The translations under genes were made by a program, and so were the position numbers. The notes beneath the pieces were generated by a model. It made no database searches. It was not told where the DNA came from and saw nothing but the letters and a program-made list of their open reading frames with translations. Shown in pieces: positions 8,320-58,050 of a stretch of 64,000 bases of DNA (position 1 is the stretch's first letter; the number at the start of each line of letters is the position of its first letter). The stretch lies in assembly GCF_030028105.1 (NCBI RefSeq), contig NC_092380.1, positions 69,871,717 through 69,935,716 of the forward strand, written 5' to 3'. The stretch comes from Mobula birostris (Eukaryota).

Positions 8320-8357
8320 GAGTCGACGTTTCAGGCCGGAACCCTTCATCAGGACTG
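8320..8357 (-). ncRNA. Minimal type I hammerhead ribozyme motif (Penelope pLTR)
   Basis: Minus strand reads CAGTC CTGATGA A GGGT TCCG GCCT GAAAC GTC GACTC. Confidence 0.7.
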
Positions 8358-8470
8358 TAGGGGGAAGGGGCAGAGGCCCTATAAAGAAGGTGGGGGGAGG
8401 GTGGGAAAGAGAAGCCTGGTAGGTTCCAGGTGAAATACCAGCAAGGGGAAAGACAAAGGGGTGGGGGAGG

Positions 8471-9607
8471 AGTCCCAGCTATGCTTGCCTCTTTGTTGGT
8501 TATGTGGAACAGTCTGTGCTCCAAACCTATTCTGGTACTGTTCCCCAACTCTTCCTTCGGTAGATTGATGACTACATTGGTGCTGCTTCTTGCACCCACG
8601 CTGAGCTCGTCAATTTCATCGACTTTACTTCAAATTTTCACCCAACCCTCAAATACACTTGGTCTATCTTGGACACTTCTCTCCCCTTTCTCGATCTCTC
8701 GGTCTCCATCTCTAGAGACAGACTGTCCACTGACACCTTCTACAAGCCCACTGACTCTCATAACTACCTCAACTATACTTCTTCCCACCCTGCCACATGC
8801 AAAAATGCCGTTCCCTATGCCCAGTTCCTCTGTCTCCGCCACATCTGCTCCCAGGATGAGGCTTTCCGTTCCAGGACATCTCAAATGTCCTCTTTCTTTA
8901 AAGATCGTGGTTTTCCATCTACCGTCATCAATGATGCCCTCACCCGCATCTCCTCCATTTCCCGCACTTCGGCCCTCACCCCATCCTCCCGCCACCACAA
9001 CAGGGACAGAGTTCCCCTTGTCCTCACCTACCACCCCACCAGCCTTCGGATCCAGCATATTATCCTCCGCAACTTGCGCCACCTTCAACAGGACCCTACC
9101 TCTAAGCACATCTTTCCCTCTCCACCCCTCTCCGCTTTCCGCAGGGATCAGTCCATCCACGACTCCCTTAGCCACACGTCCATTCCCACTGATCTCCCAC
9201 CTGGCACTTATCCCTGTAAGCCTAAGTGCTACACCCGTCCCTACACCTCCTCTCTTGCCATCATTCAGGGCCCCAAACAGTCCTTCCAGGTGAGGCAACA
9301 CTTCACTTGTGAGTCTGTTGTGGTCATCTATTGCATCCGGTGCGGCCTCCTCTACATCGGTGAAACTCGACGGACATTGGGGGACCGCTTCATTGAGCAC
9401 CTCCGCTCCGTCCGCCACAACAGACAGGATCTCCCAGTAGCCACCCACTTCAACTCTGCTTCCCACTCCCATTCAGATATGTCCATACATGGCCTCCTCT
9501 ACTGCCATGATGAGGCTAAACTCAGGTTGGAGGAGCAACACCTCATATACCGTCTAGGTAGTCTCCAGCCCCTTGGTATGAACGTAGAATTCTCCAACTT
9601 CTGGTAA
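8471..9607 (+). pseudogene. Penelope RT / GIY-YIG endonuclease remnant
   Basis: PSYACLFVGYVE; FLR*IDDYIG (catalytic YIDD Tyr replaced by TAG at 8561); LPFLDL; YKPTDSHNYL; Cys linker YPCKPKC; VIYCIRCGLLYIGETRRTLGDRFIEH; GMN terminus. Confidence 0.9.
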
Positions 9608-9879
9608 TTTCCCCCCCCCCCCCCCCCCGCTTCCTCTATCTCTATTTCACTCTGCCCCCTCCCCCAGCTGCCTATCACCTCCCTCATGGTTCCACCTCCT
9701 TCTACTACCCATTGTGTTTTCCCCTATTCTTTCTCCACCTTTCCTGCCTATCACCTCCCTGCATCCCCTCCCCCACCCTTTGTCTTTCCCCTTACTGGTT
9801 TTTCACCTGGGACCTACCAGGCTTCTCCTTCCCACCCTCCCCCCCACCTTCTTTATAGGGCCTTTGCCCCTTCCCTCTA

Positions 9880-9917
9880 CTGTCCTGACGAAGGGTTCCG
9901 GCCCGAAACGTCGACTG
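9880..9917 (+). ncRNA. Minimal type I hammerhead ribozyme motif (Penelope pLTR)
   Basis: CTGTC CTGACGA A GGGT TCCG GCCC GAAAC GTC GACTG: core boxes CUGANGA and GAAA, helix II with a UNCG loop, GUC cleavage triplet. Confidence 0.75.
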
Positions 9918-10737
9918 ATCGTTCCCACAGATGCTGCCCGACCCGCTGAGTTCCTCCAGCGTGTTGTGAGTGTTGCTTTGATCCCAGCATCTGCAGATTA
10001 TTTTGTGTTTAAGAGAATAGATATAATTTTTATAACCATTTCAGGTCATGTTAAAATGAGTAAGGGTATGATGAATATCGTTTTCTATTTCTAAGTTCTC
10101 TTATTATTTTTTTCATACTGATTGATTTCTGTAGAGTTTGCAGGTGACTGTGGGTGAAAGGAGATTAACAAGATGTTTTCACATCTCTGTAACCCATACT
10201 TCGTAAGATATTCAAGGATGTTTCAAATTAGCAATTATTTTTGTGTGAGTAATTATTTTAAATGACTTACAACCCTTGATCAGGATTGTTCATCTACAAA
10301 CAAATTGCATTCAGTGATCTGTAGTGTTACTTATTCATGAATCATTACAGTTACATAAAATCTGGTGTTTATGTCCAATAAGTGGTTGTGACTTATACAA
10401 TAGTGAGTCACAACATTAGCTACGGCTGCATTCGACCCCACCACATTGCCTCAGATGCTGAAACTAAGCCCTTGTCAGACTAATGCTTTACCGATGTTGA
10501 AATTTTTGCTCGAATCTTCCTTCACCCCACCCCTGAAGATGTTAGCTACTGGACATAAATGCTGACTCCCCATACCTGACCCACTCTGCTGAATTAAAAT
10601 TTCAAATAAGGGGCAAGAAGAGAGATATAGCTCTGGTGTGGGAGAGAAAATGGAGGGAAGATGAGGGACTTGTGACAAGTATTGTGCTTGTGAGAGTGGG
10701 AGGAAGGGATGAAAGGTGAGAAAGGGAGAACTTGAAA

Positions 10738-10941
10738 ATCTCTCTCTCACTTTCACCCCTTCTCCCTCTCTCCCTCTCTCTCCCACACTCGCCCTGTCTC
10801 TCTCCCACGCTCGCCCTCTCTCTCTCCTCCTCTCTAACACTCACCTCCTCTCTGACACTCACCTCCTCTCTCACTGTTACCCTCTCCCTCACCCACCCTC
10901 TCCCTCCCCCTCCCTCCCTCACACACACACTCTCCCACACA

Positions 10942-10987
<46 letters not shown>

Positions 10988-12095
10988 CTCTCTCTCTCCC
11001 ACACACTCTCTCTCTCCCACACACTCTCACTCTCTCTCCCACACACACTCTCACTCTCTCTCTCTCTCCCTCCCACACACTCTCTCTCCCTCCCACACAC
11101 TCTCTCTCCCACACACTCTCTCTCCCACACACACTCTCTCTCCCACACACACTCTCTCTCCCACACACACTCTCTCTCACACACTCTCTCTCTCCCACGC
11201 AACACACTCTGTTTCTCTCTCCCACGCACGCACTCTCTCTCCCGCACACGCACTCTCTCTCCCGCACACTCTCTCTCTCTCACACACACTCTCTCTCCCA
11301 CACACTCTCTCTCTCCCACACACTCTCTCTCTCACACTCTCTCTCTCTCTCACACTCTCTCTCTCACATTCTCTGTCCCACACACACTCTCTCTCCCACA
11401 CACACACTCTCTTTCTCTCTCCCACACACACACACTCTCTCTCTCCCTCCTGTACACGCACTCTCTCTCTCCCACACAATCTCTCTCTCTCACACACTCT
11501 CTCTCTCCCACGCACACACTCTGTTTCTCTCTCCCACACACACGCGCTCTCTCTCCCGCACACGCACTCTGTCCCGCACACGCACTCTCTCTCTCCTACA
11601 CACATTTTTCTCTCTCACACACCCACTCTCTCTCTCCCTCCCACACATACACTCCCTCACTCTCACACACACACTCCCTCACTCTCACACACACACTCCC
11701 ACTCCCTCACACACCCACTCCCACTCCCTCACACACACATCCTGTCTCTCTCACACACACACACACACTCTCTCCCGCTCACTCTCATCCTCTCTCTCAC
11801 ACTCCTTCACCCTCACCTTCAACCTCAACCTCACTTTCACCCTCAATCTCACCCTCTCCCTCACCCATTTCCTGTCCCTCTCTCATCCTCTCTCTCATCC
11901 TCTCTCGTATCCTCTCTCTGTCACTGTCTCTCTCTGTCTCTCACTCTCTCTCTCTGTCTCTCACTCTCTCTCTCTGTCACTCTCTCTCTCACTCTCTCTG
12001 TCAATCTCCCTCTCACTCTCTCTCACTCTTTTCACTCTCTCTCACTTCTAACTCTCACTCTCTCTTTCTCACTATCTCTCACCCTCTCTCACACT
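10738..12095. repeat. Compound (CT)n/(CA)n microsatellite, ~1.35 kb
   Basis: Nearly G-free + strand made of ctctct/cacaca/ccc blocks. Confidence 0.97.
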
Positions 12096-13060
12096 GTTCC
12101 CCCACCATCATCTTTTCCCCTCCATGCTGCAGTTCCCTGTCAGTTTTCCTGCTGCCTTATTATTGAATTATTCATATTCAGTATATGGCTGCTTTGCAGC
12201 TGTCTATAGATACAGAGAAGCACTAAAGTTTCAGGATTTCCTTTCTAAACCTACAAATCATGTGGCATGGCCAGTGAGCTGTGAAGGGCAAAGAACATTT
12301 TATAAAAAAGACGCTGGATAGTTTTTCAAGAAGCGCATTTTCTAAAAATTGAAATTCCCAGAAGCTGGGCAGAAGGGGCTATGGGTGGACCTTACAAATT
12401 GGTAATAATAAATTTACAACAGTTCTCGGAACTATTAGAGAATATATGACCTAGAGTAAATGCAATGAAGTTTTCTTGTCTTATAATGTCATCTGTGATA
12501 TTGTATGTGTTGCATTTCTCATTTTAGTAACTGGATCACCAGAGAGGAGGTCATGTTGCCTCTTCTACATTACAGCAAAATTAATCATTAGAAGCTTATG
12601 GAATTAATGAAAGCTAATGTTTCCTATTTTTCCCTTTGAGCCTATTCTGATGTTCATAATTCAGAATATAAACATAAAAGTATGTTTTTATAAACAACAC
12701 GAGTTAAAGTCTCGAGTTAATTACCAGGTCTAGAATTTTTTTTAAATCACACCAATAAAACAAAGAGGATTTGATTCTGTATGAAAGGCAATTAATTTTT
12801 TGGAATTAACTGTTCGTAATTTTATCGTAATTGGTCTGCATGCTGAAATTCAGTAACTGAATAATAATTGTTTGGCTTTCTTTATGATATAGAGCTGTCA
12901 GTGTAGGTTGAAAGATGGATGCAAGGAGATGCAGGGACATTAGATATAAACACAGCAGGTGGAATGTAACATGGAAAATGTAACCTATTAATAATAGGCA
13001 TTAGAATGCCAAACAAGGAATGAATTACTTGGGATTTGATGGTGCCCACATTAAAAACAT

Positions 13061-13166
13061 GGTCCTGAAGAACAGAAGGATGTCGGCCTGAAACGTCAAG
13101 TGTTTACCCTTTTCCATAGATGCTGCCTAATCTGCTGAGTTCATCCAGTGTTTTCTGTGTGTTGGT
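13061..13166 (+). mobile_element. Short Penelope-derived insertion with degenerate hammerhead
   Basis: 10-bp TSD ttaaaaacat (13051-13060 / 13167-13176); gtcctgaagaa...ggcctgaaacgtc...tttccatagatgctgcc. Confidence 0.75.
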
Positions 13167-15094
13167 TTAAAAACATTGTGTAGGTTCATTTATGAGGAAT
13201 GGCAGCGTGTATATGGTATTGGGTGACATAGAACCAATTAGTTCATTTCTGTACAATTTTCAGAAAGGGATAATTGAAGGAGAGCATAAAAGCCCACAAA
13301 AGTAACGCGGATTGTATATTTTCATACAGCTCACAATTGTATGTGCCAGCTATTCACATTAAAATATATTTGGATAAATAAATGGATAGGCAAGATATAG
13401 AGGGATGTGGACCAAATGTATGCAAATAAAACTAGCTTAGGTGGGCACCCTGGTCAGCACGCACAAGATGAGCCAAAAGGCTTGTTTCTGTGCTGTATGA
13501 CTCTGTGACTCTATCTACCTTTTCCTGCACCTGTTGAGCTGTGAATTTCTGTATTTCTTAGCTTCCTCTCACATATTGTGTAATCCCTTGCTTTTCTTTT
13601 GCCTTCCGTAAGTACACTACCTCAGCATGTTTCTGCCTTCCTGACGCATCCATTGATACCTTCACGTAGCAGCATAATTAACACTTGGGTGGTATGGTGA
13701 GGGATTATGGGATTTGGCAGAAGAAGAGTGACTTGAGTTATAAATTGTGCTTCTTTGTACATAATTTGTAATTGGTAAGAAAAACACAAAGTGAAAATGA
13801 TGGAATTGCAAAGCCACTGATAAATTGCAAGAAATAACTTAAATGAATCTTAACAAAATGGAAGTAATTCAAGTGCTCTGAATAATATTGGTCACAGAGT
13901 AGCACAGAATGCCTTCTAAAAATATACAACAGTTGTAAGTTCTTTTTTTAATCATAAAGGAAGTAATTACTCAATTTTCTCTGTAACCATAGCTTGTTAA
14001 CAAAGGGAATTCATATGTTGAACATTATCAGCAGCAGAATCATTTTGACTTTGTGAACTCTGATGCTCTGCTGCAGAATTCATTTTCTAAAGATCAGAAT
14101 GGGAGATGGATGAAATATGTCTGAGTTCAGTGTGCATTTTTTGTATACAGAGTATGCTAAAGAATATAAAAATTGTTATATTATGTTCAGCATTTACTTC
14201 CATTCTCCCAGTTAAAAATCTGGGTTTAAACTTTTATGTAGATTATGATCCTAGAAACTTAGTAGTGATGAGTATAAGTAAAGATTTGTACCATTTCTCT
14301 ATTTGGATGATATGGATGGAGGAAAGCTCTATTAAGGTTCAAATCTTCATTCCCTTCATATACTCTGTCATTTTAAAAAATAATTTGAGACTTTAGATTG
14401 TGATTGATCATATCAATACAAGAAGATTTAATATTGTTAATCGGGGGGGTGGAATTAGACTAAGTATACAAACTATTGGGCTCATCTATAACTTTACCTT
14501 GTTATTTTTAAACCCTCCTTTTTATGGACAGAAGAATAATTTCTCCTTCATATAAATTATATGTTGTCTTTCCCACAACAAATAAGTATAATTTTCAATG
14601 TAATCTAGTAAATGATTCATTCTCTCAAAAACTGACCTTTGCTACCTTTCACCATCTGTTTTTTAAATTACTTTGGTATTAAATAGAATAAAATAAACGA
14701 GAGAAAGAAGTAAAAACAATTATTTGCATCAGAACATTGTAGAAAATCAACAGTTCTATGGGTTGAAAGATTGACAACTGGTGTATCTTTATCTTCTTTT
14801 TATTAATGTAGACATTTTGCTGTATTTTCCTTTCACGTTGTTGAATCTGGTGAATAAAATCACAAAGGTCAGTAATTAATAATTAATGGATGTTGATCAG
14901 CTAATTATAAGTTCTGCTAAATTAATCAATGGACTTCAATTTTCAAAGCATCCAAAAACTGCATTGTAACTTTCCAAGAGTCTCTGACAGCCTTTGATTA
15001 TCCAGAAGTTAATAACTTTAGTTTTAGCATTCAGAAACATGACCATCTTCTAAAATAAAAGGTGACTGAGGCAATACAGTTATATTCATGCATA

Positions 15095-15215
15095 CTACAC
15101 ATACACACACAACTTCACAAGCGCATGCACACACACAGAACTACACAAGTGCATGCGCATGTGTATGTGCACACACACGCGCGTACGTACGCATACTCCC
15201 ACATACATACATATG
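15095..15215. repeat. Alternating purine-pyrimidine (CA/TG/CG) low-complexity tract
   Basis: gtgcatgcgcatgtgtatgtgcacacacacgcgcgtacgtacgcatac. Confidence 0.7.
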
Positions 15216-16322
15216 GATTGATGAGAGTGCTTCAAGAGCTGGTTTAGACACAAGAGGCTAAATGATCTCCTCTATGTCATAATAAAATAGGAGAAATATA
15301 AACATGAGAATAGAAATATATATAAAAATATTTTCTAAAATTGAATTATTATAATTATTTTTTGAATAATATTCATTCCTATATTTAAGAACTTGTTATC
15401 GTTGACCATGGGTTTCCAATTATAATAATCATTTTAAAAGTTAACACTTGTGAGTAATGATTTAAAAATCACCATTTGGTCTGATACATCAGGGAAACCA
15501 AACACAGCTATTTCCAAAGACAGATCAGCTGCCGTTAACAAGCCTTCACCACCTTCTGTCCACCAGCTTTGATACCACTTGTATATTTCAATCTCTCTTT
15601 ATCAGTTCTCTGTCACTAACACTGCTTCTCTTCACTCCACAATCACCCCGTCACAGAAACATGAAATGTGTTTAATTTCTAACCTTTTTTTTCCAGTTCT
15701 GGTGTACATTTATCAACCTAAAATGTTAGCTCTGCTTCGTTGTCCTTTCCCTCAACCTATAGAGAGTTTGCAACATTTTTCAGCTTATTTTTCAGACTTC
15801 CAGCATCTGCAGAGCCCTGCTTTTTAAAATACATTGTTTTGTTATTTGTCAAGTCTCCCTCGTATTTGTTCTTTCATTAACCAAAATTCCCCTTAAACAA
15901 TCTCATTCTTAGAGAAGATGTTACAAATTTACTTTCAGCTGGACAATATTGACTTTGTTAGTAAAGATATTATATTCTCCCTAATTCATATATGGTATGT
16001 CAGCATTCATGTATTTCCCACCTCATCACTTCTGTTTGCAGGCTATCACTATCTTGCATACAAAGAATAAAGAAGAAAGCTAAACATTACAACACACAAA
16101 ATCAACTTTGTTTCAATTTCCATAAATGTTGCTTGACCTGCTAAGTATTTTAGCATCTTATATTTTTATTTTAGATTTCCAGCATGTGCAATTTTTAAAT
16201 GTTTTGACTGCATGACTTCCTGTTCCTTAATTCTTTTGTTAGTGTACACACTGTTTGATCAATTTTACTGAAATCCTATTTTTACAGTATAAAAAAAGTA
16301 CAAAATCTTGTACTTTTCGGTA

Positions 16323-16710
16323 AAGCAGCCAACGTAATCAAAGATCCCATCCACCTTGGACATTCTCCCTTCTTCTCCCTCCCTTCGGGCAAAAGATTCA
16401 AAAGCCCGAAGACAAATATCATCGGAGTCAAGGACAACTTCTATTCTGATATTAAATGAACATTGATTGGTCCCCTAGAATGATGAGATGGACTCTTGAC
16501 TACAGAACATATCTTATTATAACCCTGCACCTTACTGTCTACTTCTCTGCACTTTCTCAGTAACTATAATACTTTATTCTGAATTCTGATATTGTTTCTC
16601 CTTGTGCAACCTCATTGTACTGATGTGATTAAGTAATCTGTATGAACAGTATACAAAACAAAGTTTTTCACTTTTATCTCGGTACATGTGATAATAAACC
16701 AATTATCAAT
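16323..16710 (+). mobile_element. Rex1/Babar-type LINE 3' fragment
   Basis: KAANVIKDPIHLGHSPFFSLPSGKRFKS, then a 3' UTR ending gtacatgtgataataaaccaatt. Confidence 0.7.
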
Positions 16711-16853
16711 TTATCACATAGGGTTTGAAATTGGTCATCAAAGAGCTTGTTTCTCAATGCAGTGTGGTATAGTGGTATTACTGAAAATCTGATTATATGT
16801 CATGGAGAATGTACTGAAAACTTCATCAAAACATGTTTTACTTTTTGTTATAG

Positions 16854-17042
16854 AAGAAGGGTACTGTTGGGCCTCAGGACTCAAAGCTGTTTTGGCGTGT
16901 GCTGCGGCAGGCTTTTGGTCGCCCAATCATCCTCAGCAGCACGTTTCGTATTATGGCCGACTTGCTGGGGTTTGCAGGCCCACTTTGTATCTCTGGGATT
17001 GTACATCACCTGAGCGATGAAAACAAGACATTTCGTCCACAG
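16854..17042 (+). CDS. ABCC8: ABCC8/SUR1 coding exon (exon 6 equivalent; TM6)
   Basis: tttttgttatag|AAG...CAG|gtacaa; 189 bp. KKGTVGPQDSKLFWRVLRQAFGRPIILSSTFRIMADLLGFAGPLCISGIVHHLSDENKTFRPQ. Confidence 0.95.
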
Positions 17043-19024: not shown

Positions 19025-19315
19025 CAAGAAATGTTGGAAAAATTCAGCAAGTCAGGCAACATCTGCGGAAAGCAAAGCAGTAAAAGTTTCGGTGGAAGAC
19101 CCTTCATCTTACATCAGAGCAGATGTCTTGCAAGACCTGTTTTACCAACACACACACATACACACAATTGTTTATTCATTTCCATAGATGCTGCCTGACC
19201 TGCTGAGTTCTTCCTGAATTTTGTGGGTGTTGTTCTGGATTGCTAGCATCTGTGGAATCACTTAGGTTATGATTTCCTGTTTTTATTTCAGATTTCCAGC
19301 ATCTCTGGTTTTCCT
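19025..19315. mobile_element. Degenerate palindromic Penelope-derived element
   Basis: aaatgttggaaaaattcagcaagtcaggcaacatct ... agatgctgcctgacctgctgagttcttcc inverted arms plus tail. Confidence 0.65.
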
Positions 19316-24415: not shown

Positions 24416-24797
24416 CCGGTCCTGATGAAGGGTCTCGGCCTGAAACATCAACTGTACTCTTTTCCATAGAAGCACACATCAAAGTTGCTGGTGAACGCAG
24501 CAGGCCAGGCAGCATCTCTTGGAAGAGGTACAGTCGACGTTTCGGGCCGAGACATTTCTTCAGGACCTTCCTGACGAAGGGTCTCAGCCCAAAACATCGA
24601 CTGTCCTCTTCCTAGAGATGCTGCCTGGCCTGCTGCGTTCACCAGCAACTTTAATGTGTGCTGCCTGAATTTCCAGCATCTGCAGAATTCCTTGTGTTTG
24701 CGTCTTTTCCATAGATGCTGCCTAACCTGCTGACTTCCTCCAGCATTTTGTGTGTGTTGTTTCGATTTACAGCATCTGCAGATTTTCTCTTGTTTGC
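24416..24797 (+). mobile_element. Penelope pLTR fragment with a palindromic Penelope mini-element (24471-24702) nested inside
   Basis: 13-bp TSD tcttttccataga (24458-24470 / 24703-24715). The insert has ~95-bp inverted arms and a ~40-nt tail. Three hammerhead-like motifs. Confidence 0.88.
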
Positions 24798-25975: not shown

Positions 25976-26131
25976 GCAAAGATCTACAATAAGATTCTTC
26001 GTTTGTCAACTTCAAATATGTCCACGGGAGAGATGACGGTAGGACAGATTTGCAATCTGGTCGCCATTGACACAAACCAGCTGATGTGGTTTTTCTTTCT
26101 CTCTCCCAATCTATGGGCTATGCCCGTGCAG
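25976..26131 (+). CDS. ABCC8: ABCC8/SUR1 coding exon (exon 8 equivalent; TM8)
   Basis: ttcatttcag|GCA...CAG|gtaatt; 156 bp. [52 protein letters not shown]. Confidence 0.96.
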
Positions 26132-26445: not shown

Positions 26446-26850
26446 TGGATTGCCTCCAATCTGATGGTATGAATATTGATTTTGCCCTCCAGTAATAAAA
26501 CATTTCCCTCCCCCTCCGATCTTCTTCTATTCCCAGCTCTGGCTGGCCTTTCACCTTTTCTTACCTACCCATAACTTCCCCCTGGGTCCCTTCCTTCTTT
26601 CCTATCTCCCATGGTCCACTCTCCTCTGCTATCAGATTCCTTTTTCTCCAGCCCTTTACCTTTCCCACCCGCTGGACTTGATATCACCTTCTAGATAGCT
26701 CCTTGCCATTCCCCTCACCTTTTTATTCTGTCATCTTCCCCCTTCCTTTTCCAGTCCTGAAGGAGGGTTCGACATGAAATGTCAACTGTTTATTCATTTC
26801 CATAGATGCTGCCTGACCTACTGAGTTCCTCCAGCAATTTGTATGTGTTC
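26446..26850 (+). mobile_element. Older Penelope 3' fragment
   Basis: CLQSDGMNIDF matches the ORF end SLQPLGMNVEF; pyrimidine-rich UTR; degenerate hammerhead at ~26752-26788. Confidence 0.75.
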
Positions 26851-36136: not shown

Positions 36137-36309
36137 ATATACACAATGAGTTGGCCTCTACAGCTTTCTGGCAATGAATTCCACAGTTTCACCACCCATG
36201 GCTCAAGAAATTCTTCCCCATCTCTGTTCTAAAGGGATGTCTTTTTTATTCTGAGGCTGTGCCCTCTGGTCCTAGGCTCTCCCACTACTGGAATCATCCT
36301 TTCCATGTC

Positions 36310-36527
36310 AACACTCACAACACGCTAGAGGAACTCAGCAGGTCGGGCAGCATCCGTGAAAGCAATCAGTCAATGTTTTGGGCCGGAACCCTGACAAAGG
36401 GTTCCGTCAGGGTTCCGGCCCGAAACGTCGACTGATTGTTTCCACGGATGCTGCCCGACCTGCTGAGTTCCTCCAGCGTGTTGTGAGTGTTGCTTTCACC
36501 CCAGCATCTGCAGATTATTTTGTGTTT
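36310..36527 (+). mobile_element. Palindromic Penelope mini-element
   Basis: ~85-bp inverted arms and a tail nearly identical to the 3' end of 8268-10010. 17-bp TSD with 2 mismatches (36293-36309 / 36528-36544). Confidence 0.88.
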
Positions 36528-36930
36528 ATTATCCTCTCCATGTCCATTTATCTAGGAATTTGAATATTCAGTAGGTTTCAATGAGAAGCTCCTTGTTCTT
36601 CTAAACCGTGATTACAAGCCAAGCCTTCAAACACTCCACATGCATTAACTCTTTCATCCCCAGATAGCTCTTGTAAACCTCCTCTGGGCCTTCTTTAATA
36701 CCAGCGTATCCTCTCCTTTTATATTGGGCACAAAACTGCTTACAGTACTCCGTGTGTTCTGAGCAATGCCTTAAAAAGCCTCAGCATTATATCCTTCCTT
36801 TTATATTCTAATACTCTCAAAATGAATGCTAACATTGCATTTGTCCAACTCAACCTGTAAGTTGATATTTAGGGATCCTGTACTAGGATTCCCAAGTCCA
36901 CTGGCAATTTCAGAAATCTCCCCCTATTTC

Positions 36931-39065
36931 AGGCAGTGATAGTAATGTGATAGAATTCACCATGCAGTTCGATTAAGTCAGGTGTACCAGTATTACAGTG
37001 GAATAAAGGGAATTCATTGAAGATGTACCTAGCAGGATAGATAAAGGAGAGTCAGTGGATGTTGTTTTATTTGGATTTTCAAAAGGCCTTTGACAAGGTG
37101 CTGAATATAAGGCTGCTTAATAAGGTAAGATCCCATGATATTACAGGGAAAAATACTAGCATAGATAGAAAATTGGTTGACTGCAAGGAGGCGGAGAATG
37201 GGAATGGGTCTTTTCTAGTTGGCTGCTGGTGACTAGTGTTGTTCTGCAAGGGACAGTGTTGGGACCATTTTTTTCACCTTATATGTCAATAATTTGAATT
37301 ATGGAATTGATGGCTTTGTGGCCAGTTCTGTGGATGATACAAAGATAGGTGGAGTGGCAGGCAGTGTTGATGAAGCAGGGAGTTTGCAGAAGGACAGACA
37401 GATTGGGAGAATGGGCAAAGAAGTGTCAGATTGAATATGGTGTAGGGAGGTGTATGGTCATGCACTTTGGTAGAAGGAATGAAGGCATAGACTAGTTTCT
37501 AAATGGGGAGAAAATTCAAAATCAGAGGTGCAAAGGAACTTGGGAGTCCCTATGCAGGATTGCCTAAAGGTTAACTAGCAGGTTGAGTCAGTGGTAAGGA
37601 AGGCAAATGCAATGTTAACATTCATTTTGAAAGGGCTGAAATATAAGAGCAAGGATGTAATACTGAAGCTTTATAAGGCATTAGTCAGACCACACTTGGA
37701 GTATTGTGAGCAGTTTTGTGTCCCTTATCTAAGAAAAGATGTGCTGGCATTGGCGAGAGTCCAGAGGAGGTTCACGAGAATGATTCTGTGAATGAGGGGG
37801 TTAACATATGAGGAGTTTTTGATAGCTCTATGCATGTACCTCCTGGAGTTTAGAAGAATGGGGGGGTGGGATCTCATTGAAACCTATTGAATATTGAAAG
37901 GTCTGGATAGAGTGGATATGGGGAGGATATTTCCTATTGTGGGTGAGTCCAGGACCAGAGGGTAGAGGATCAGAATAGAGGGACGTCCTTTTAGAGCAGA
38001 GATGAGGAGGACTTTCTTTAGCCAGAGGGTAGTGAATCTATAGAATTCATTACAACTGATGGCTATGGAGGCTAAGTCATTGAGTATATTTAATGCAGAG
38101 GGTGATAAGTTCTTGATTAGTCAGGGTGTCACAGGTTATAGGGAGAGGGCAGGAGAATACTTTATACTTTTATACTTTATTGTCGCCAAACAATTGATAC
38201 CAGAACGTACAATCATCACAGCGATATTTGATTCTGCGCTTCCTGCTCCCTGGATTACAAATCGAGAGTAAATATTAAAAATTTAAATTATAAATCATAA
38301 ATAGAAAATAGAAAAATGGAAAGTAAGGTAGTGCAAAAACACTGAGGCAGGTCTGGATATTTGGAAGGTATGGTCCAGATCCGGGTCAGGATCTGTTCAG
38401 CAATCTTATCACAGTTGGAAAGAAGCTGTTCCCAAATCTGGCCGTATGAGTCTTCAAGCTCCTGAGCCTTCTCCCGGAGGGATGAGGGACAGAAAGTGTG
38501 TTGGCTGGGTGGGTCGTGTCCTTAATTATCCTGGCAGCACTGCTCTGTCAGCGTGCGGTGTAAAGTGAGTCCAAGGACGGAAGATTGGTTTGTGTGATGT
38601 GCTGTGCCATATTCACGATCTTCTGCAGCTTATTCTGGTCTTGGACAGGACAACTTCCATACCACGTTGTGATGCACCCTAGAAGAATGCTTTCTACGGT
38701 GCATCTATAAAAATTAGAGGGAGTTTTAGGGGACAGGCCAAATTTCTTTAGTTTTCTCAAGAAGTAAAGGCGCTGGCGGGCCTTCTTGGCAGTGGACTCT
38801 GCTTGGTTGGACCAAGTCAGGTCATTTGTGATATTGACCCCGAGGAACTTAAAGCTTTTGACCTGTTCCACTTGCGCACCACCGATGTAAATTGGGTCGT
38901 GCAGTCTACTACTCCTTCTGAAGTCAACAACCAATTCTTTCGTCTTGCTGACGTTGAGGGATAGGTTATTGAAGGAATAAGATTGAGAGGGATAATAAAT
39001 CAGCCATGATGGAATGGTGCAGCAAATTTAATAGGCCAGTGGCCTAATTCTGCTCCTATGTCTTG
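36931..39065 (+). mobile_element. CR1 LINE (+) inserted in the CR1 (-)
   Basis: LDFQKAFDKV and VRKANAML..LYKALVRPHLEYC; 3' tail at ~38975-39065. Confidence 0.85.
38158..38970 (-). mobile_element. Rex1/Babar LINE 3' fragment, relatively young
   Basis: ORF 38548-38934 VVDFRR..FKFLGV..KKARQRLYFLRKLKKFGLSPK..FYRCTVESIL; (ACTTTAT)n tail. Confidence 0.88.
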
Positions 39066-45550: not shown

Positions 45551-46164
45551 TCTGTAGATAAATTTTTAAAATCTTCTGTGAAAGAAAACTAGGATGAATA
45601 TGAGCACAAAAGCTATAAAACACTAGTCTGAAAGTCTTTCACCCACCACGTATGGTTTCACATCTTCGTTAAAAAGCTCTGATTTTCTTTATCCCCATTC
45701 CTCACATTTCAGCTGAGACATCTTCCATTCCATTGTCAATTAACATTTCAGATTACACCATCAACCGTCAAATATGGACTGGTCTCTAAATAGCATCAAA
45801 CATGTGTGAACAGGAATGCAGCTCCTTCTGATTTATAAATAATCTCCATTGTACTCCATGTTAGATTTACTTAAGCTTCCAAATTTAGTTCAGTTAACTT
45901 GGGATTCCATTCTTGTAATGAAATCATTGTCACCCCCCCTTCAACTTCATTAACAATAATGTTGTTGGAAGTGGTAATGACGGGTGCAAGATGAACAGGC
46001 TTGTTTTTTACTTTGAAATTATTATAGTAATCCATTGTTATTTTGATTAAAATGAAGTTATTTTTACATGAAAGTTGATATAACGGCAGATTTTTTCTAT
46101 CCTATTGTTGCAATGAAGAATTATTGTGACTCCTGTGTAAATTTTGTTTTTTTTCTGTTAACAG

Positions 46165-46299
46165 ATCATTGTAGGTGTGTTTCTTCTCTATTACCTCCTT
46201 GGAATTAGTGCCTTAATTGGAGCAACAGTAATTGCATTGTTGGCCCCAGTCCAGTATTTTGTAGCAACCAAATTCTCTCAGGCCCAGAGAAGCACATTG
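46165..46299 (+). CDS. ABCC8: ABCC8/SUR1 coding exon (exon 9 equivalent; TM9); not in the ORF track
   Basis: ttttctgttaacag|ATC...TTG|gtgagt; 135 bp. [45 protein letters not shown]. Confidence 0.96.
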
Positions 46300-48618: not shown

Positions 48619-48998
48619 TTTCCAGCATCTGCAGAATTCCTGTTGTTTGCATTTTAAAATTCACTACTGCGAAGCCTCTTCCGGTGATGCCTACACCGAA
48701 GAAGTTTAGATCCTCTCTTCAACGGGAGCTCAGTGAAACCATCTCTCACTGCTCCCCATCTGTAATTTCTTCGGCTCTTCAACTTTTCGACCACATTTTG
48801 ATCATATTGGATCTCCGCCTCCCCCTCCCACTTTCAAATCTCTTACTAACTCTTCTTTCAGTTAGTCCTGACGAAGGGTCTCGGCCTGAAACGTCGACTG
48901 TACCTCTTCCTAGAGATGCTGCCTGGCCTGCTGCGTTCAACAGCAACTTTGATGTGTGTTGCTTGAATTTCCAGCATCTGCAGAATTCCTGTTGTTTG
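48619..48998 (+). mobile_element. Non-autonomous Penelope-derived / retrozyme-like insertion with terminal direct repeats
   Basis: 31-bp perfect direct repeat tttccagcatctgcagaattcctgttgtttg (48619-48649 / 48968-48998). Flanking duplication ttgtattctt (48611-48620 / 48996-49005). Confidence 0.85.
48863..48900 (+). ncRNA. Minimal type I hammerhead ribozyme motif
   Basis: TAGTC CTGACGA A GGGT CTCG GCCT GAAAC GTC GACTG. Confidence 0.75.
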
Positions 48999-50319
48999 TA
49001 TTCTTCGTATGTCTGAAAAAAACTCTTGGTATTGTTTTTGATATTTTGTCTTTTCTCTCATTATGTTTGTTTTTAACTTGCCTTCTGTTGGTTTTTAAAA
49101 ACTTCCTAATCCTCTACCTTCCCACTAATTTTTGCTATATTATTTGCCCTCTCTTTTACTTGAATGCTGTCTATGACTTCCCTCGTCAACTACAGTAGCC
49201 TCATCCTCCCTTTAGAATACTACATCATTTTGGAACGTGTTGATCCTGCACTTTCTGAATTGCTCCGCAGAAACTCCAGCCATTTTGTTCTCTTGTCATC
49301 TTTGCTAGTGTCCCCTTCCAATCAACTTTGGCCAGCTCCTCGCTCGTACTTCTTTAATTCCTTTTACTCCACTGTAATACTGATACAACTGACCTTGTCT
49401 TCTGCCTCTCAAACTCCAGGGTGAATTCTATCATTTAAAACCACTGCCTACCAGGGGTTCCTTACTTTAAGCTCCCTAATCAAATCTGGTACATTGCACA
49501 GTACCCAATCCAGAATTGCCTTTCTCCGAGTGGGCTTAACTATAAGCTGCTCTAAAAAGCCACCTTGATGCATTCCACAAATTCCTTCTCTAGGGATCTA
49601 GCACCAACCTGATTTTCCCAACTCACCTCCATATTGAAATCCCTCATGAATAACATAATATTGCCCTTATTACATGACTTTCTATTTGTAATTGTAATTT
49701 ATAGCCTATATCCTGGCTACTGTTTGGGGGCCTGTATATAACTCCCATCAGGGTCTTTTTGTCCTTGTAGTTTCTTAACTTTACCCACAAGGATTCTTCA
49801 TCTTCTGATCCTTTGTCACCTCTTTCATTTTTTACCAACAGAGCCACCCTACCCCCTCTGTCTGTCCTTTCAATACAAGTTATGTCCTTGGATGTTAAAC
49901 TTCCAACTGTGATCTTCTTTCAACCACATTTCAGTAAAGCCCACAACATCATAAGTGCCAATCTCTAGCTGCGCTACACGATCATCTGTCTTATTCGATA
50001 TACTGTGTGCATTTAAGTATCCATATACTGTGTGCATTCAAATACAACACCTTCGGTCCTTTATTCATCACCCTTTTCGATTTTGCCCCCATGTTACATT
50101 TCACTTCATCCCACTGAAAACAATTTTCCCCTATCATCTTCCTGTCCTACCATGTGTAGTAGCATCCATAATTCTTTCCATAGGATGTCATGGAGTTAAG
50201 GCATCATATAGGACAGAAACAGGTTTTTCAGCCAAACATGAAGCACCTTTCTACACTGCACCAGTCCCATTTTACTCCTTCCACATCCTCAAAAACCTCC
50301 CATAAATTCTATCACTCAA

Positions 50320-50525
50320 CTGAACACTAGGGGCAATATAAAATGGCAACTAATCTATCAAATGTCACATCTTTGGCATGTGGGAGGAAAGCTGAGGACC
50401 TGAGGGAAGCCCATGCATTCACAGTGAGAATGTGAAAATTCGATACAGACAGCACCAGAGGCCAGGAGTGAATCCAAGCACACTGGGGCTACGAGGAAGT
50501 AACTCTTTTAGCCATGCCATTCTGC
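50320..50525 (-). mobile_element. V-SINE (HE1-like)
   Basis: tgtgggaggaaagctgaggacctgagggaagcccatgcattcacagtgagaatgtgaaaatt is the reverse complement of the V-domain. Confidence 0.7.
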
Positions 50526-50904
50526 TGCTCAATAGCTAGGACACTCCTACTGCACTGAAATCCTACTTCAGTTGCATTTTTGTGCAAAGTATATTTGACA
50601 AGAAATTCTGTAGGGATATTAGATGGGCTTGGTGGCCCTATGTTGGCAAATATTTCTGTCATCAGTCTTTCGTTGAAAGCTTCAGTTGAGATTAAGTCTT
50701 AAGGAAATGAAGATAAGCAACTAGATTCTCCCTTTCAAGGCAACATTCAGGAAAGTTAGCACCTGATCCTATGAACCTATGCTGTAAGCAGGATAGGGAA
50801 GGGTACCTCCGCTCTGAGAAATCCTGCAACCTACTCCCATAAACCCAAACAACTATGAGTACGAGGAGCATGAAGGTGATATGAGGTGACTTATTGGTGG
50901 AGAA

Positions 50905-51070
50905 CAAAGAGTGGATAGGAGTGTTCCAGGGGGAATAGTCAATTTGAAATGCTGAAAGGAAAAGGAAGGAAAGGTATGTTTGGTGATAACATTACACTAT
51001 AGCTGCACCAAATGGCAGAAGATCATTCTTGGAATGTGGAGGCTGGTAGGGTCAACACAAGGGGAACCTG
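50905..51070 (-). mobile_element. Old Penelope ORF fragment
   Basis: Reverse complement aligns by eye to 9010-9180 (VPLV..PTSL.I..II). Confidence 0.6.
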
Positions 51071-51474
51071 GAAGGAAAGAGGTCTGAGAGAAGTAATGGA
51101 GGAAATGAAATAGATTTGTTATCTTATCTTCATGGGGAATCCACAGATGAGGTAAAAGGAGTTATAATCTCATTCGAGCATTGGTAAGTAAAATAGAGAA
51201 AAGGATTGGTACTTTAAAAAAAAATTGATGTAGTTGAATTTATGCCTCTCATCCTGATTAGTCCTGAACATTGTTACCTTGGTAGGGAAGTGCTCCATTC
51301 AGCAACTGTAACATTTAAAATGTTAATGAACAAAATAAATAAAGAGTTTGAAAGAACCGCATTACATGATGTTTAAAATACTGAGACCTGGGAGACGAAT
51401 GTTAAGGTTTTCAGCTATCATGATTGTTTAATTTGTTTTTCTCCAAATCCTGCTAGTGATTGTTCTTATTTTAG

Positions 51475-51637
51475 GATTACTCAAGTGAGCGCTTGAGGAA
51501 AACGAATGAAATGCTACGAGGAATCAAACTGCTTAAGCTCTATGCTTGGGAGCAAATCTTCCATAACAGTGTAGAAGAGACTCGACACAAGGAGCTCACA
51601 AGTCTCAAATCTTTTGCTCTCTACACCTCCATATCTA
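51475..51637 (+). CDS. ABCC8: ABCC8/SUR1 coding exon (exon 10 equivalent); not in the ORF track
   Basis: cttattttag|GAT...TCT A|gtaaga; 163 bp, ends in phase 1. [54 protein letters not shown], with the ABCC signature [11 protein letters not shown]. Confidence 0.96.
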
Positions 51638-52918
51638 GTAAGAAATAGTTTATGTTTCATTTGAACTGTTGCAATTCCAGTTTTTTTCAATTTTGTGCTT
51701 TCGTTTTTCAAATAATTGAAGCTATATTTTTTATTCTGGACAGCAGAAACAGTAAATATAAAATTTTGGTGATCTTTGTAGAGATCAAATTGAAGTACTT
51801 ATTCTTACTCTGGTTTTTCATATGACCATAAGCACTGGTATGAGTTATGTAAAGGCCCAATAATGTGCAATCAGTACGTAACTCACTCACTCATTAGTAC
51901 TTAGATTCAATCTATAGATTTACTATCAATCTTATTACTTGTCGGTTAGACATCTGTTGCTGGAGGTTTGGAACAGATATGAGGCCAGAATCAGGGTTAC
52001 CAGGAAGAACATCAGGGATCTAGTAACTACAGTGCCTTTAAAATATATTCACCTCCCCTTGGAAGTTTTCATGTTTTATTGTTTTACACATTGAATCACA
52101 GTGGATTTAATTAAACTTTTTTTTGACAGTGATCAACAGAAAAAGACTCTTTCGTGTCAAAGTGAAAACAAATCTCTACAAAGTGATCTAAACTAATTAC
52201 AAATATAAAACACAAAATAATTGATTGCAAAAATATTCAACCCCTTCAAGTCGGTATTCAGTAGATGCACCTTTGGCAGCAATTACAGCCTTGAGTCTGT
52301 GTGGATAGGTCTCTATCAGCTCTGAATATCTGGGCACTACAATTTTTCCCCATTCTTCTTTACAAAACTGCTCAAGCTCTGTCAGATTGCATGGGGATCA
52401 TGAGTGAACAGCCCGTGTCAAGTCCTGCCACAAATTCTCAATTGGATTGAGGTTTGGACTCTGACTTGGCCACATCAGGACATTAACTTTGTTGCCATTC
52501 CTGTGTATCCTGGCTTTATGCTTGTGGTCATTGTCTTGCTGGAAAACACATCTTCTCCCAAGTCGCAGTTCTCTTGCAGATTGCATCAGGTTTTCCTCCA
52601 GGATTTCCCTGTATTTTGTTGCATTGATTTTGCCCTCTATCTTCACAAGCCTTCTAGGGCCTGCTGCAGTGAAGCATCCCCCCCAGCATGATGCAGCCAC
52701 CACCATGCTTCAAAGAGATCTAAATTAATTACTAATGTAAAATACAAAATGATTGATTGCATAAGCATTCGTCCCCTTTAATATGACAAACCAAATCATC
52801 ATTGGTGCAGCCAATTGGTTTTACAAGTTATATAAGTAGTTAAATGGAGACACTGTGTGCAGTCAAGGTGCTTCAATTGATTTTAGTTAAACTACACCTG
52901 TATCTGTACACCTGTATA

Positions 52919-53172
52919 GGTCGGCTGGTGGCGCAGTGACATCAGCGCCGGACTCCGGAACAGAGGTTCCCGGGTTCGAATCCAGTCGGGCCGTTCCTGA
53001 GTACAATATCCATCCGTGCTGGGTTGAGTGTTATAAATAAAGAAACATACTGCGAAATGTCTGTGTGAGGAGTATTGCGCCACACAGACTTGTAAGCGCC
53101 TTGTAAGGCATGAAAATGCCCGACGCTAGCCTGTCAGGCCTGAGTTGACACCATCATCATCATCATCATCAT
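52919..53172 (+). mobile_element. tRNA-derived SINE with (CAT)7 tail
   Basis: A box tggcgcagtgac (52929-52940), B box ggttcgaatcc (52973-52983), CpG-rich; tgtat(ctg) duplicated at the flanks. Confidence 0.82.
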
Positions 53173-53432
53173 GTATCTGGAAGGTCCAACTGGTTGTGAG
53201 TGTGTGCTGGCAAAAACTAAATCATGAAGGTGAAAGAACTCTCCAAACAGCTCTGAAAAGGTTGTTGAAAAGCACAAATCAGGAGATGGATACAAAGAAA
53301 TTTCCAAGTCACTGAATATCCCTTGGGACTACAGTTAAGACAATCATCAACAAATGGAAAGAATATGGCACAGCTGTAAGTCTGCCTATAGATCAGGCCA
53401 TCCTCATAAACAGAGTGACCGTGCAAGAAGGC

Positions 53433-55760
53433 TACCAGACTAGATGCTATGTTTAGCATAATATGCTATGTTAGGTAATGAACCGGGTCAGGTCATAGAT
53501 CTCTCAATGGGTGAGCATCTGGGGGACAGTGACCACCACTCCCTGGCCTTTAGCATTATCATGGAAAAGGATAGAATCAGAGAGGACAGGAAAATTTTTA
53601 ATTGGGGTTGGGCAAATTATGAGGCTGTAAGGCTAGAACTTACAGGTGTGAATTAGGATGATGTTTTTGCAGGGAAATGTACTATGGACATGTGGTCGAT
53701 ATTTAAAGATCTCTTGCAGGATGTTAGGGATAAATTTGTCCCAGTGAGGAAGATAAAGAATGGTAGGGTGAAGGAATCATGGGTGACAAGTGAGGTGGAA
53801 AATCTAGTCAGGTGGAAGAAGGCAGCATACATGAGGTTTAGGAAGCAGGGATCAGATGGGTCTATTGAGGAATATAGGGTAGCAAGAAAGAAGCTTAAGA
53901 AGGGGCTGAGAAGGGCCAAAAGGGGGCATGAGATGTCCTTGGCGAGTAGGGTAAATGAAAACCCCAAGGCATTCTTCAATTATGTGAAGAACAAAAGGAT
54001 GACATGAGTGAAGGTAGGACTGATTAGAGATAAAGGTGGGAAGATGTGCCTGGAGGCTGTGGAAGTGAGCGAGGTCCTCAATGAATACTTCTCTTCGGTA
54101 TTTACCAATGACAGGGAACTTGATGAAGGTGAGGACAATATGAGTGAGATTGATGTTCTGGAGCATGTTGATATTAAGGGAGAAGAGGTGTTGGAATTAT
54201 TAAAATACATTAAGACGGCTAAGTCCCTGGGGCCTGACGGAATATTCCCCAGGCTGCTCCACGAGGCGAGGGAAGAAATTGCTGAGCCCCTGGCTAGGAT
54301 CTTTATGTCCTCGTTGTCTACAGGAATGGTACCGGAGGATTGGAGGGAGGCGAATGTTGTCTCCTTGTTCAAAAAAGTTAGTAGGGATTGTCCGGGTAAT
54401 TATAGACCAGTGAGCCTTACGTCTCTGGCAGGAAAGCTGTTGGAAAAGATTCTTAGAGATAGGATCTCTGGGCGTTAGAGAATCATGGTCTGATCAGGGA
54501 CAGTCGGCATGGCTTTGTGAAGGGCAGATCGTGTCTAACAAGCCTGATAGAGTTCTTTGAGGAGGTGACCAGGCATATAGATGAGAGTAGTGCAGTGGAT
54601 GTGATCTATATGGATTTTAGTAAGGCATTTGACAAGGTTCCACAGGGTAGGCTTATTCAGAAAGTCAGAAGGCATAGGATCCAGGGAAGTTTGGCCAGGT
54701 GGATTCAGAATTGGCTTGCCTGCAGAAGGCAGAGGGTCATGGTGGATGGAGTACATTCGGATTGGAGGGTTGTGACTAGTCATGTCCCACAAGGATTGGT
54801 TCTGGGACCTCTACTTTTCGTGATTTTTATTAACGACCTGGATGTGAGGGTAGAAGGGTGGATTGGCAAGTTTGCAGACAACACAAAGGTTGGTGGTGTT
54901 GTAGATAGTGTAGAAGATTGTCGAAGATTGCAGAGAGACATTGATAGTTTGCAGAAGTGGGCTGAGAAGTGGCAGATGGAGTTCAACCCGGAGAAGTGTG
55001 AGGTGGTACACTTTGGAAGGACAAACTCCAAGGCAGAGTACAAAGTAAATGGCAGGATACTTGGTAGTGTGGAGGAGCAGAGGGATCTCGGGGTACATGT
55101 CCACAGATCCCTGAAAGTTGCCTCACAGCTGAATGGGGTAGTTAGGAAAGCTTATGGGGTGTTAGGTTTCATAAGTCGAGGGATAGAGTTTAAGAGTTGC
55201 GATGTAATGATGCAGCTGTATAAAACTCTGGTTAGGCCACACTTGGAGTACTGTGTCCAGTTCTGGTCACCTCACTATAGGAAGGATGTGGAAGCATTGG
55301 AAAGGGTACAGAGGAGATTTACCGGGATGCTGCCTGGTTTAGAGAGTATGTATTATGATCAGGGATTAAGGGAGCTAGGGCTTTACTCTTTGGAGAGAAG
55401 GAGGATGAGAGGAGACATGATAGAGGTATAGAAGATATTAAGAAGAATAGGTAGAGTGGATAGCCAGCGCCTCTTCCCCAGGGCACCACTGCTCAATACA
55501 AGAGGACATGGCTTTAAGGTAAGGAGTGGGAAGGTCAAGGGGGATATTAGAGGAAGGTATTTTACTCAGAGAGTAGTTGGTGCTTGGAATGCACTGCCTG
55601 AATTAGTGGTGGAGGCAGATACACTAGTGAAATTTAAGAGACTACTATACAGGTATATGGAGGAATTTAAGGTGGGGGGTTATATGGGAGGCAGAGTTTG
55701 AGATTCGGCACAACAATGTGGGCCAAAAGGCCTGTACTATGCTGTACTATTCTATGTTTT
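53433..55760 (+). mobile_element. CR1 LINE, young 5'-truncated copy (ORF2 broken by few stops)
   Basis: ORFs 53468-53656, 53684-54007, 54008-54478, 54517-55431 and 55456-55701 form a continuous EN-end/RT: HLGDSDH, KSLGPDG, NYRPVSLTS, DFSKAFDKV, VPQGLVLGPLLF, KFADNTK. Confidence 0.93.
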
Positions 55761-56526
55761 GTCATCAAAAACACATCATCCCTACCTGAAGCATGGTGGT
55801 GGCTGCATCATGCTGTGGGGTTGCTTCACTGCAGCAGGCCCTGGAAGGCTTGTGAAGATGTTGTAAAACAATAAAAACATGAAAAATTCCAAGGGGGTGG
55901 GGTGAATACGTTTCATAGGCACCGTAAGTATCTGGAGCGAGAAAAAAACAGAAGTTGAGAGTGTGCACACTACCTTTAAACTCATTGTGTTCATTGGAAA
56001 ATTTGTGTTGCTACTGTGTAACATGTTTTTTAAAAAGTGAAGTAATTATTTGCTAGAGTAGTAAGAGAAATATCTAACAGTTTTTAGAATTTGCTGGTGT
56101 AGCACCACAAAAGAGCTGAGGGCACCAGATTCCCTAAGGGGAAGTCAATAAGGGAAAAATTAATTTCATTATCCCTTCGATAAAAAAGCTAAAGCTAATT
56201 ATGCATATTTTTAAACAAAGTTATATAATGTCAAGGAATTATAAAGTTGGGATTATACCTCCTGTGATGTGTTTCACATGCTGGTTTTGTATCAGCAATT
56301 TTGTAAGATATTTGAAGATTCACATTATTTTAAAATGTAACTTCATTGCTCATCATAACTGAAAATAATTGGTTTGAGAAGGAGCTTATGTTTTGAAATG
56401 TTTATGATATTATTCCTATCTGTATCTTTAGTGACGATTATAATGCATACGAATGAGGGATAGTATTATCAAAGGTGATTTCGTCTGAGTTCTCTTGTTT
56501 CATTGGCAGTCTGACTTAGTAACTAC

Positions 56527-56850
56527 AGAATCAGAATCAGGTTTAATATCGCTGGCATGTGTCATGAAATATGTTGTTTTGCAGCAGTATTACAGTATTA
56601 CAGTATTACATAATAAAAAAACTATAAATTACAAGAAGAAATATATGTACGTACATTCACAGGTTCATTGTCCATTCAGTAATCAGATGGCGGTGGAGAA
56701 TAAGTTGTTCCTAAAGCATTGAGTGTGTGTCCCAGACCCCTCTACCTCCTCCTTGATGGCAGCAATGAGAAAATGGCATGTCCTGACTGATAGGTGTCCC
56801 TAATGATGTTTGCTGCCTTTTTGAGGCATCGCCTTTTGAAGGTGTCTCAA
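56527..56850 (-). mobile_element. Rex1/Babar-type 3' end
   Basis: cagaatcagaatcaggtttaatatcgctggcat tail; similar to 35601-36136. Confidence 0.6.
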
Positions 56851-57442
56851 TGATGGTTTACACAGGAAGATGCTGTCTGACTTACCCAGGGAGATATCAT
56901 TTTGTTGAATAATTGCAGCAATTAACCAGAGGATAGAAAAAGAAGTCTACATTTATTGAAATGAAAACGCAAACAAACTGATCAAGCTACAAGGAGTATA
57001 CTACAAACTACCGAAGAGTGGAAAGTTGCATATGACATGAATACAGGCCATGGAATAATAATTTATGGAATCATAATTTGGAAGAATCAATTTCATTATA
57101 AAATAACTGAGTGATGATTTGTACTAATTTACTGATCTTATTAAAAGTCCTTAAACTGTTGAAAAAGAAACTGAAATTGCTGGAAGCAGTCAGGGGGTCA
57201 GGCAGCAGCTGAGGGAAGAGAGACAAAGTCTACATTTCAGATTTTCAGCTTGATTTTCACCCCTTGGGCAGTTGATTTGGGTAATGGAGCTTTTACAAAT
57301 GTGTCATGCTGATGTTGTTTGTTCCAAGCCTGCAGCTGGGGGAAATGCTATTAATTTTTAAAACATATCATTCCTCTTGCCTCTTCCATTGGTTGCTTCC
57401 ATAAACATTTAATATTTGGAGAAAAGATACAAAATTGCAGAA

Positions 57443-58050
57443 TCACTATCAGGTTTGTTATCACTATCTTAAATGAAATTTGTTGCTTTGTGGCAGCAGA
57501 ACAGTGCAGGACATAAAATTGCTATAAAATACAAATTAATTAATTAGTGCAAAAAAATTGGAATAACAAGGTAGATGTCCACCTAATCCTGATTAAGGCT
57601 CTTGGCCTGAAGCATTGAATGCTTATTCCTCTCTTAGATGCTGTTTGACCTGTTGATTCCCTCCAGGGGCTACAGCCTCTGAATACGAGGACACCCCTTA
57701 AGAACAGAAATGAGAAGGAATTTCCTGAGCCATAGGGTGCTGAATCTGTGGAACCCAAATCATTGGGTATATTTAAAGCAGAAGTTGATCGGTTCTTGAT
57801 TAGTATGTACGTCAAAGATCATGGAGAGAAGGCAGGAGAATGGAGGTTGAGAGGGATAATATATCAGCTTTGATTGAATGGTGGAGCAGATATGATGGGC
57901 TAAATGGCCTAATTCTGCTCCTACGCCTTATGGTCTTATAACTTTTAATCCATTAAAAATGCTAGAGGAAGTCAGCAGGTCAGGCAGCATCAATGGAATC
58001 AAGACCATTTATGATTTTCTAGATTTATAGCCTCTGCAGAATCTCTTGTA
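57443..58050. mobile_element. Cluster: Rex tail (-), degenerate Penelope pLTR (~57580-57665), CR1 3' end (+, ~57670-57940), Penelope fragment (~57955-58050)
   Basis: Each piece resembles other copies in this window. Confidence 0.6.

Follow-up and report, generated by a model that had tools for sequence, protein, structure and literature searches.

Minimal hammerhead motifs in ABCC8 introns of Mobula birostris lie in the terminal repeats of a very-high-copy Penelope-like retroelement and are probably inert relics

Introns of the Mobula birostris ABCC8 gene contain dispersed minimal hammerhead ribozyme motifs, which were analysed computationally in a 64,000-nucleotide stretch of the genome (contig NC_092380.1, positions 69,871,717–69,935,716 of the forward strand; hereafter the window). 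Very probably, these motifs are the ribozymes of the terminal repeats (pLTRs) of a Penelope-like retroelement of very high copy number, and the copies in ABCC8 are inert relics that do not cut the pre-mRNA. The element has a recognizable anatomy and a very large number of genomic copies, these show no strand bias, and their ribozyme core decays like the flanking sequence. Selection would keep the ribozyme only in those master elements that are active; there it would adopt the double-hammerhead fold within tandem element RNA, perhaps aided by an element protein. For a copy on its own, the predicted fold is an inactive rod whose core is paired with both helix III and the cut site, and an adjacent inverted twin would additionally mask many of the copies.

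All ten of the dispersed motifs claimed in a preliminary description of the window were found at, or within about 10 bases of, the expected places (C3 of the core at 8352(−), 9885(+), 13065(+), ~19100(−), 24422(+), 24563(−), 24571(+), 26757(+), 48868(+), and 57589(+); Table 1), and the sequence near 36400 proved to be a head-to-head pair with both members 5′-truncated (36309–36392(−) and 36409–36528(+)). The type I core order (CUGANGA, GAAA, UH) is kept at 9885(+), 48868(+), and 8352(−) and is broken or truncated in most other copies of the window. The description of these three as near-intact was right for the full core, the ACGU of helix III and the paired helix II, but not for helix I of 9885(+), where the letters are TGTC instead of AGTC, which gives a U·U mismatch. 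The predicted cut sites after 9912 and 48895 had been placed correctly, and both the extra A 3′ of CUGANGA and the loop-less ACGU helix III were as described: the base between positions 9 and 10.1 is A in 104 of 109 aligned copies, and the ACGU palindrome (15.2–16.2) is shared by all three near-intact copies and five of the six family references. The proposed Rfam search gave 39 matches at E up to 5, and none of them was to a hammerhead family. Position N7 varies between U and C, as had been noted, but the core is not generally kept, since all 11 core bases were found in only 57 of the 151 core-spanning copies of the genic sample described below. N7 lies within a CpG; it is C in 41/45 copies of the young family A and U in 70/87 copies of family C, and because of the CpG context and the prevailing C, U at this position in family A is probably the product of decay.

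The closest known class is the minimal hammerhead in the pLTRs of metazoan Penelope-like elements, described in 2014 (Cervera and de la Pena, PMC4209133; this and the other papers cited are compared here by the portions of their texts that were accessible). Like those ribozymes, the motifs are of type I without loop 3, have a palindromic 15.2–16.2 segment and one extra base between 9 and 10.1, and lie in a pLTR, mostly as single dispersed motifs of truncated elements with some opposite-strand pairs. The earlier assignment to Penelope pLTR hammerheads of the dimer-dependent type was thus supported. Compared with the published ribozymes, helix II has 4 bp here, and the conserved G–C pair at 10.1–11.1 is replaced by a G·U wobble in 25/45 copies of family A, the youngest family, as well as at 48868 and 8352, whereas 9885 and 14/16 family B copies have G10.1–C11.1. 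U at 11.1 was also seen in 24 of the first 30 exact genome matches, and it abolishes the CpG at the catalytic G12; in family A it looks like the master-element state rather than decay. Another difference is the small family D of the genic sample, in which C replaces the core A6 in eight of the nine copies spanning the position, a heritable core variant. The number of motifs differs as well, the 31,922 exact matches reported below standing against ~4,000 in coelacanth and ~9,000 in Xenopus, counted there by another method (PMC4209133). By every testable feature except the variable 10.1–11.1 pair, the motif belongs to this class. The accessible portion of PMC4209133 names no cartilaginous fish, and its supplements may already list a related motif; in the literature covered by our search, outside which most subscription journals lie, no paper on hammerheads of cartilaginous-fish Penelope elements was found.

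The carrier was identified from its coding and terminal regions. The 9885 motif is located 279 bases 3′ of the stop of a 347-aa open reading frame (ORF), and in most of 83 ORF ends examined the motif follows the stop by ~190–330 bases. A Pfam scan of the 347-aa ORF at E 0.001 detected no domain, and its GIY-YIG match (E 0.0015) is under the Pfam cut-off; an uninterrupted 816-aa relative (L203, G000:C7) contains RVT_1 (E 1.5e-7) and then GIY-YIG (E 6e-5), both over the cut-off. The 347-aa frame is 86–91% identical to other copies (best 117 scored of 231,407 candidates, including 116 others). Truncation at the 5′-end, an inverted 5′ copy and a tail of 30–40 bases are features of EN+ Penelope-like elements (10.1101/2021.04.23.441226), and they are matched here by the inverted copy at 8269–8470 and by the 35-base tail at 48619 and 48968; an inverted upstream piece accompanies 52/192 young copies. 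The same order of reverse transcriptase (RT) and GIY-YIG with a hammerhead in the pLTR and a 30–40-base tail downstream is known from the Poseidon element PAc of Anolis carolinensis (Frangieh et al. 2024, PMC11167929), whose genomic copies, like those studied here, are consistent with an uncut template. In its 3′ part (48905–48990), the pLTR is kept across all families and has predicted hairpins; by analogy with the anole element, this segment may be the protein-binding and RT-start region. Elsewhere in the genome, two exact same-strand motifs 202 bases apart form a natural tandem pair (L026, G000:C1:3182947 and 3183149).

A degenerate 35-base pattern of the motif gave 31,922 exact matches in the 4.0-Gb genome (15,743 forward and 16,179 reverse), and the reversed pattern gave none. 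For analysis of orientation and decay, 1.814 Mb of genic DNA was used in 21 intervals, which were oriented by exon matches of ABC transporter and ion channel families, with each interval taken to hold a single gene; ABCC8 was assumed to extend over the 30 kb before the window and the 10 kb after it. The host gene and its plus-strand orientation agreed with the preliminary description, as the exon at 25976–26131 scores 97 bits against SUR1 and 88 against SUR2. Copies were detected by a profile of the 3′ flank alone, so the core does not bias their detection; 335 of the 357 profile matches passed E 0.1, and the same profile found no matches in the reversed DNA. Given these controls, the motif is far above chance. 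The density in ABCC8, 17.3 copies per 64 kb, is ordinary for the Mobula birostris genome (mean 11.6, range 3.7–22.4 over the 21 intervals).

The proposed comparison of sense and antisense copies revealed no orientation bias among the 335 genic copies, 165 of which are sense and 170 antisense. Core-only matches were divided 41 to 33 (p 0.42) and fully intact copies 10 to 11, in the order sense and antisense; when family D was left out, the core was intact in 31/75 sense and 26/76 antisense core-spanning copies, and the core mismatch was 10.5% and 10.3%, respectively. Conservation of the core relative to its flanks was compared in 97 copies (23 of family A, 6 of B, and 68 of C) after removal of CpG-type and subfamily-diagnostic columns. 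The preliminary description had taken a core no better conserved than its flanks as grounds for abandoning its proposal, and with these columns removed this is what was found: the mismatch was 54/781 (6.9%) in the core and 243/3160 (7.7%) in the flanks (p 0.50), a family-wide result that a single selected copy could escape. The catalytic G12 was changed to A in 29/110 copies, its frequent mutation being explained by its position inside a CpG. Compensatory pairing of N7 and 16.2 in the predicted rod showed no association in family C. Since the core is the same across the family references, except for position 6 in family D, selection would appear to act on the master elements and not on the inserted copies.

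The positions where copies begin were determined for 191 young ones, defined by a flank divergence of at most 10%; a true 5′ junction between −70 and +9 bases around the cut site was present in 109 of them. Thirty-seven of these junctions fall in the 8 bases that span the 5′ strand of helix I and C3, where 10.9 were expected (p 1e-11, the 8-base window having been picked after inspection of the histogram). Family A alone has 15 of its 38 junctions in this zone; junction calls in families C and D are possibly inflated by upstream subfamily differences. At the cut site itself there is no enrichment of 5′ junctions (9/109 against 10.9 expected, and 1/38 in family A), and junctions at this site were consequently rejected as a fossil of cleavage; 3′-ends exactly at the cut site were also few (1/135 copies, a small number). 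In a second sample, made up of the first 100 family A matches (of 60,165) selected by the 3′ flank alone, 32 junctions were assigned by eye; 16 lie in the helix I zone, and none lies 3 bases or less from the cut site. Loose contig ends accumulate at 48864–48865 in three of the four sequencing runs. An extra G before helix I, which could derive from a cap and so mark a transcription start, was counted in 675 cases against 647 for A, G exceeding the genome composition, with many rows apparently templated by the element itself. In all families, a pyrimidine tract ending in YAG precedes helix I (9860–9885 and 48840–48868 in the window). Such a tract fits both a splice acceptor and an initiator-like site. 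Helix I also marks the end of an intron in Drosophila virilis (PMC4209133). A general intron from the ORF stop to helix I was considered and rejected, as family B has a GT donor but family A lacks one (spliced copies were not searched for). Possible causes of the clustering at helix I are fold-back at the rod, a transcription start and a splice acceptor.

These positions raise a tentative idea, to which we give somewhat less than even weight, that the front edge of the hammerhead rather than its cut site sets the ends of element copies, the ribozyme serving as a boundary and fold-back structure in transposition. Reverse transcription would begin in the tail, cross the uncut site and stop or fold back on reaching the base of the hammerhead's 36-base rod, a point that also coincides with the possible transcription start or splice acceptor. 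Such a boundary could give rise to the short solo copies as well as the 5′ inversions that typify Penelope-like elements, and cleavage would be rare or secondary. Nothing on 5′ junctions clustering at helix I was found within the limits of the literature search described above. The clustering is the part of the analysis worth keeping.

The preliminary description had proposed that two plus-strand copies transcribed in the ABCC8 pre-mRNA could form a double hammerhead together and cut an intron co-transcriptionally. That this happens and affects the gene we regard as highly improbable; the window has one fully intact sense copy, its partner is distant, and there is neither strand bias nor core conservation across copies. 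A heterodimer can be drawn from 9885 and 48868, both of which have an intact core and ACGU, and the truncated 36409(+) retains ACGUC–GACUG and could in principle provide a substrate strand. However, 9885 and 48868, the nearest near-intact same-strand pair in the window, are separated by 39 kb and four exons, and the motif at 8321–8356 is absent from the pre-mRNA as a ribozyme because it is antisense. Moreover, 9885 and 36409 each have an inverted twin. The antisense twin of 9885 (~200 bases, 8269–8470) shares its intron and precedes it in the transcript by 1.3 kb, and the predicted fold-back duplex of −385.8 kcal/mol would sequester the hammerhead at 9881–9916; for the head-to-head pairs near 24500 and 36400, fold-backs of −158.0 and −169.8 kcal/mol, respectively, were predicted. 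For lone motifs the predicted rod, formed by the core GACG with the CGUC from helix III and the cut site, has −11.5/−11.6 kcal/mol versus −7.0/−7.6 kcal/mol for the hammerhead stems. The designed 9885+48868 dimer reaches −13.2 kcal/mol; both a mis-registered duplex (−31.8 kcal/mol) and a pair of rods are stronger. In cleavage assays, hammerhead monomers of Penelope-like elements were inactive and dimers weak (PMC4209133). Finally, the exons flanking the 48863 copy (46162–46298 and 51474–51637) are joined in contigs of all four runs, which were guessed to be RNA, one run being probably DNA by its label.

A milder variant, that abundant element RNA or protein sometimes activates lone intact copies such as 48863 in trans, with splicing unharmed and no selective trace left, is unlikely, less so than cutting by paired intronic copies. 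The summed depth of the pLTR end is very high in the RNA-guessed contigs of all four runs, although this depth is not a measure of expression; the anole hammerhead was cleaved only with added element protein (PMC11167929), and hammerhead-cut introns are still spliced (PMC2995048, citing Dye 2006 and Fong 2009). Against it stand the predicted rod, which hides the core, the lack of excess genomic junctions at the cut site and, in the accessible text of PMC11167929, the statement that no anole RNA-seq read ended at the cut site of the anole hammerhead. The least probable of the alternatives, with almost no credence left to it, is that the short copies form a non-autonomous retrozyme family of their own, spreading through ribozyme-cut circles. 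Many copies do consist only of the hammerhead and ~110 bases, and non-LTR retrozymes have a type I hammerhead of pLTR origin, as here, and are present in the single chondrichthyan genome sampled (10.64898/2026.07.22.740005). In those retrozymes, however, tandem units carry intact hammerheads, whereas the copies studied here, which occur singly or head to head, are part of a coding element; no tandem array of at least two units with complete hammerheads was found in the window. Starting at helix I and not at the cut site, the copies already contradict this alternative by their junction positions, and the short ones share the diagnostic bases of the ORF-bearing copies.

Several points weigh against regarding the intronic copies as inert. 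The strand test rules out a strong purging of sense copies but not a weak one, as the sense share of core-intact copies is 0.55 with a 95% interval of 0.43–0.67, and cutting that is harmless to splicing would yield no strand bias. In the uncorrected test, the core was better kept than the flanks in family B (p 0.0004) and in the pooled copies (p 0.014), with no such excess in family A (p 0.22) or C (p 0.49). The family B set mixed young and misassigned old copies, and the signal disappeared only after the column removal and the trimming of family B from 15 copies to 6. No inverted twin accompanies the 48863 copy within its intron, the nearest-neighbour energies leave out the tertiary contacts of the hammerhead core, and mature contigs cannot reveal whether an intron was cut.

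The conserved intronic hammerheads of amniotes, few in number, are shared between species, have the canonical form and are active as monomers. The sense motifs of ABCC8 resemble them in lying inside a host intron but differ in being among tens of thousands of decaying repeat copies. The extension of a known motif class to another genome at very high copy number has in itself little significance. What it means is that a vertebrate genome tolerates thousands of core-intact sense minimal hammerheads in its introns, and this tolerance fits a need for a partner or an element protein. What the hammerhead does in EN+ Penelope-like elements has been called unclear (10.1101/2021.04.23.441226), and since the copy ends mark helix I and not the cut site, the family is a good system for asking whether the template is cut.

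Table 1. Hammerhead motifs, element parts and ABCC8 exons located in the window
Position	Strand	Feature	Remarks
8269–8470	−	Inverted 5′ copy of pLTR end	~90% identical to 9767–9968; holds antisense hammerhead
8321–8356	−	Minimal hammerhead, family B	UUCC loop; core and stems intact; G10.1·U11.1 wobble; antisense to ABCC8
8564–9607	+	5′-truncated Penelope-like ORF (347-aa frame)	End of RT region and C-terminal GIY-YIG endonuclease
9608–10011	+	pLTR	Pyrimidine-rich stretch, hammerhead, 3′ hairpin region, tail
9881–9916	+	Minimal hammerhead, family B	Core intact; G10.1–C11.1; helix I U·U mismatch; predicted cut after 9912
13061–13100	+	Decayed minimal hammerhead	Insertion disrupts helix II
19078–19112	−	Decayed minimal hammerhead	Approximate limits; head to head with 3′ pLTR piece 19176–19258(+)
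24418–24453	+	Decayed minimal hammerhead	Helix III ACAU (palindrome gone); first helix I pair lost
24473–24700	both	Head-to-head family A pLTR ends	24563(−) helix II broken; 24571(+) G12 to A; both arms begin at helix I
25976–26131	+	ABCC8 exon	SUR1 residues ~392–447; fixes host gene and strand
26753–26790	+	Decayed minimal hammerhead, family C	A9 changed; helix II damaged
36309–36528	both	Head-to-head family B pLTR ends	Truncated within hammerhead; without CUGANGA
46162–46298	+	ABCC8 exon	5′ of intron carrying intact copy 48863–48900
48619–49002	+	Young family A insertion	35-base tail repeated at 48619–48653 and 48968–49002
48863–48900	+	Minimal hammerhead	Sole fully intact sense copy in window; CUCG loop; G10.1·U11.1 wobble; predicted cut after 48895
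51474–51637	+	ABCC8 exon	Follows 46162–46298; joined directly to it in contigs of 4/4 runs
57585–57622	+	Decayed minimal hammerhead	G8 and A15.1 changed

Other repeats were also noticed in the window. A CT/CA-rich simple repeat of 1.5 kb lies at 10640–12200, and a short hairpin at its start gives spurious microRNA matches. Further on are a frame with an ALKBH8_N match (38548–39027), a DDE_3 transposase fragment (52398–52709) and, at 54008–55698, an intronic LINE-type reverse transcriptase (RVT_1).

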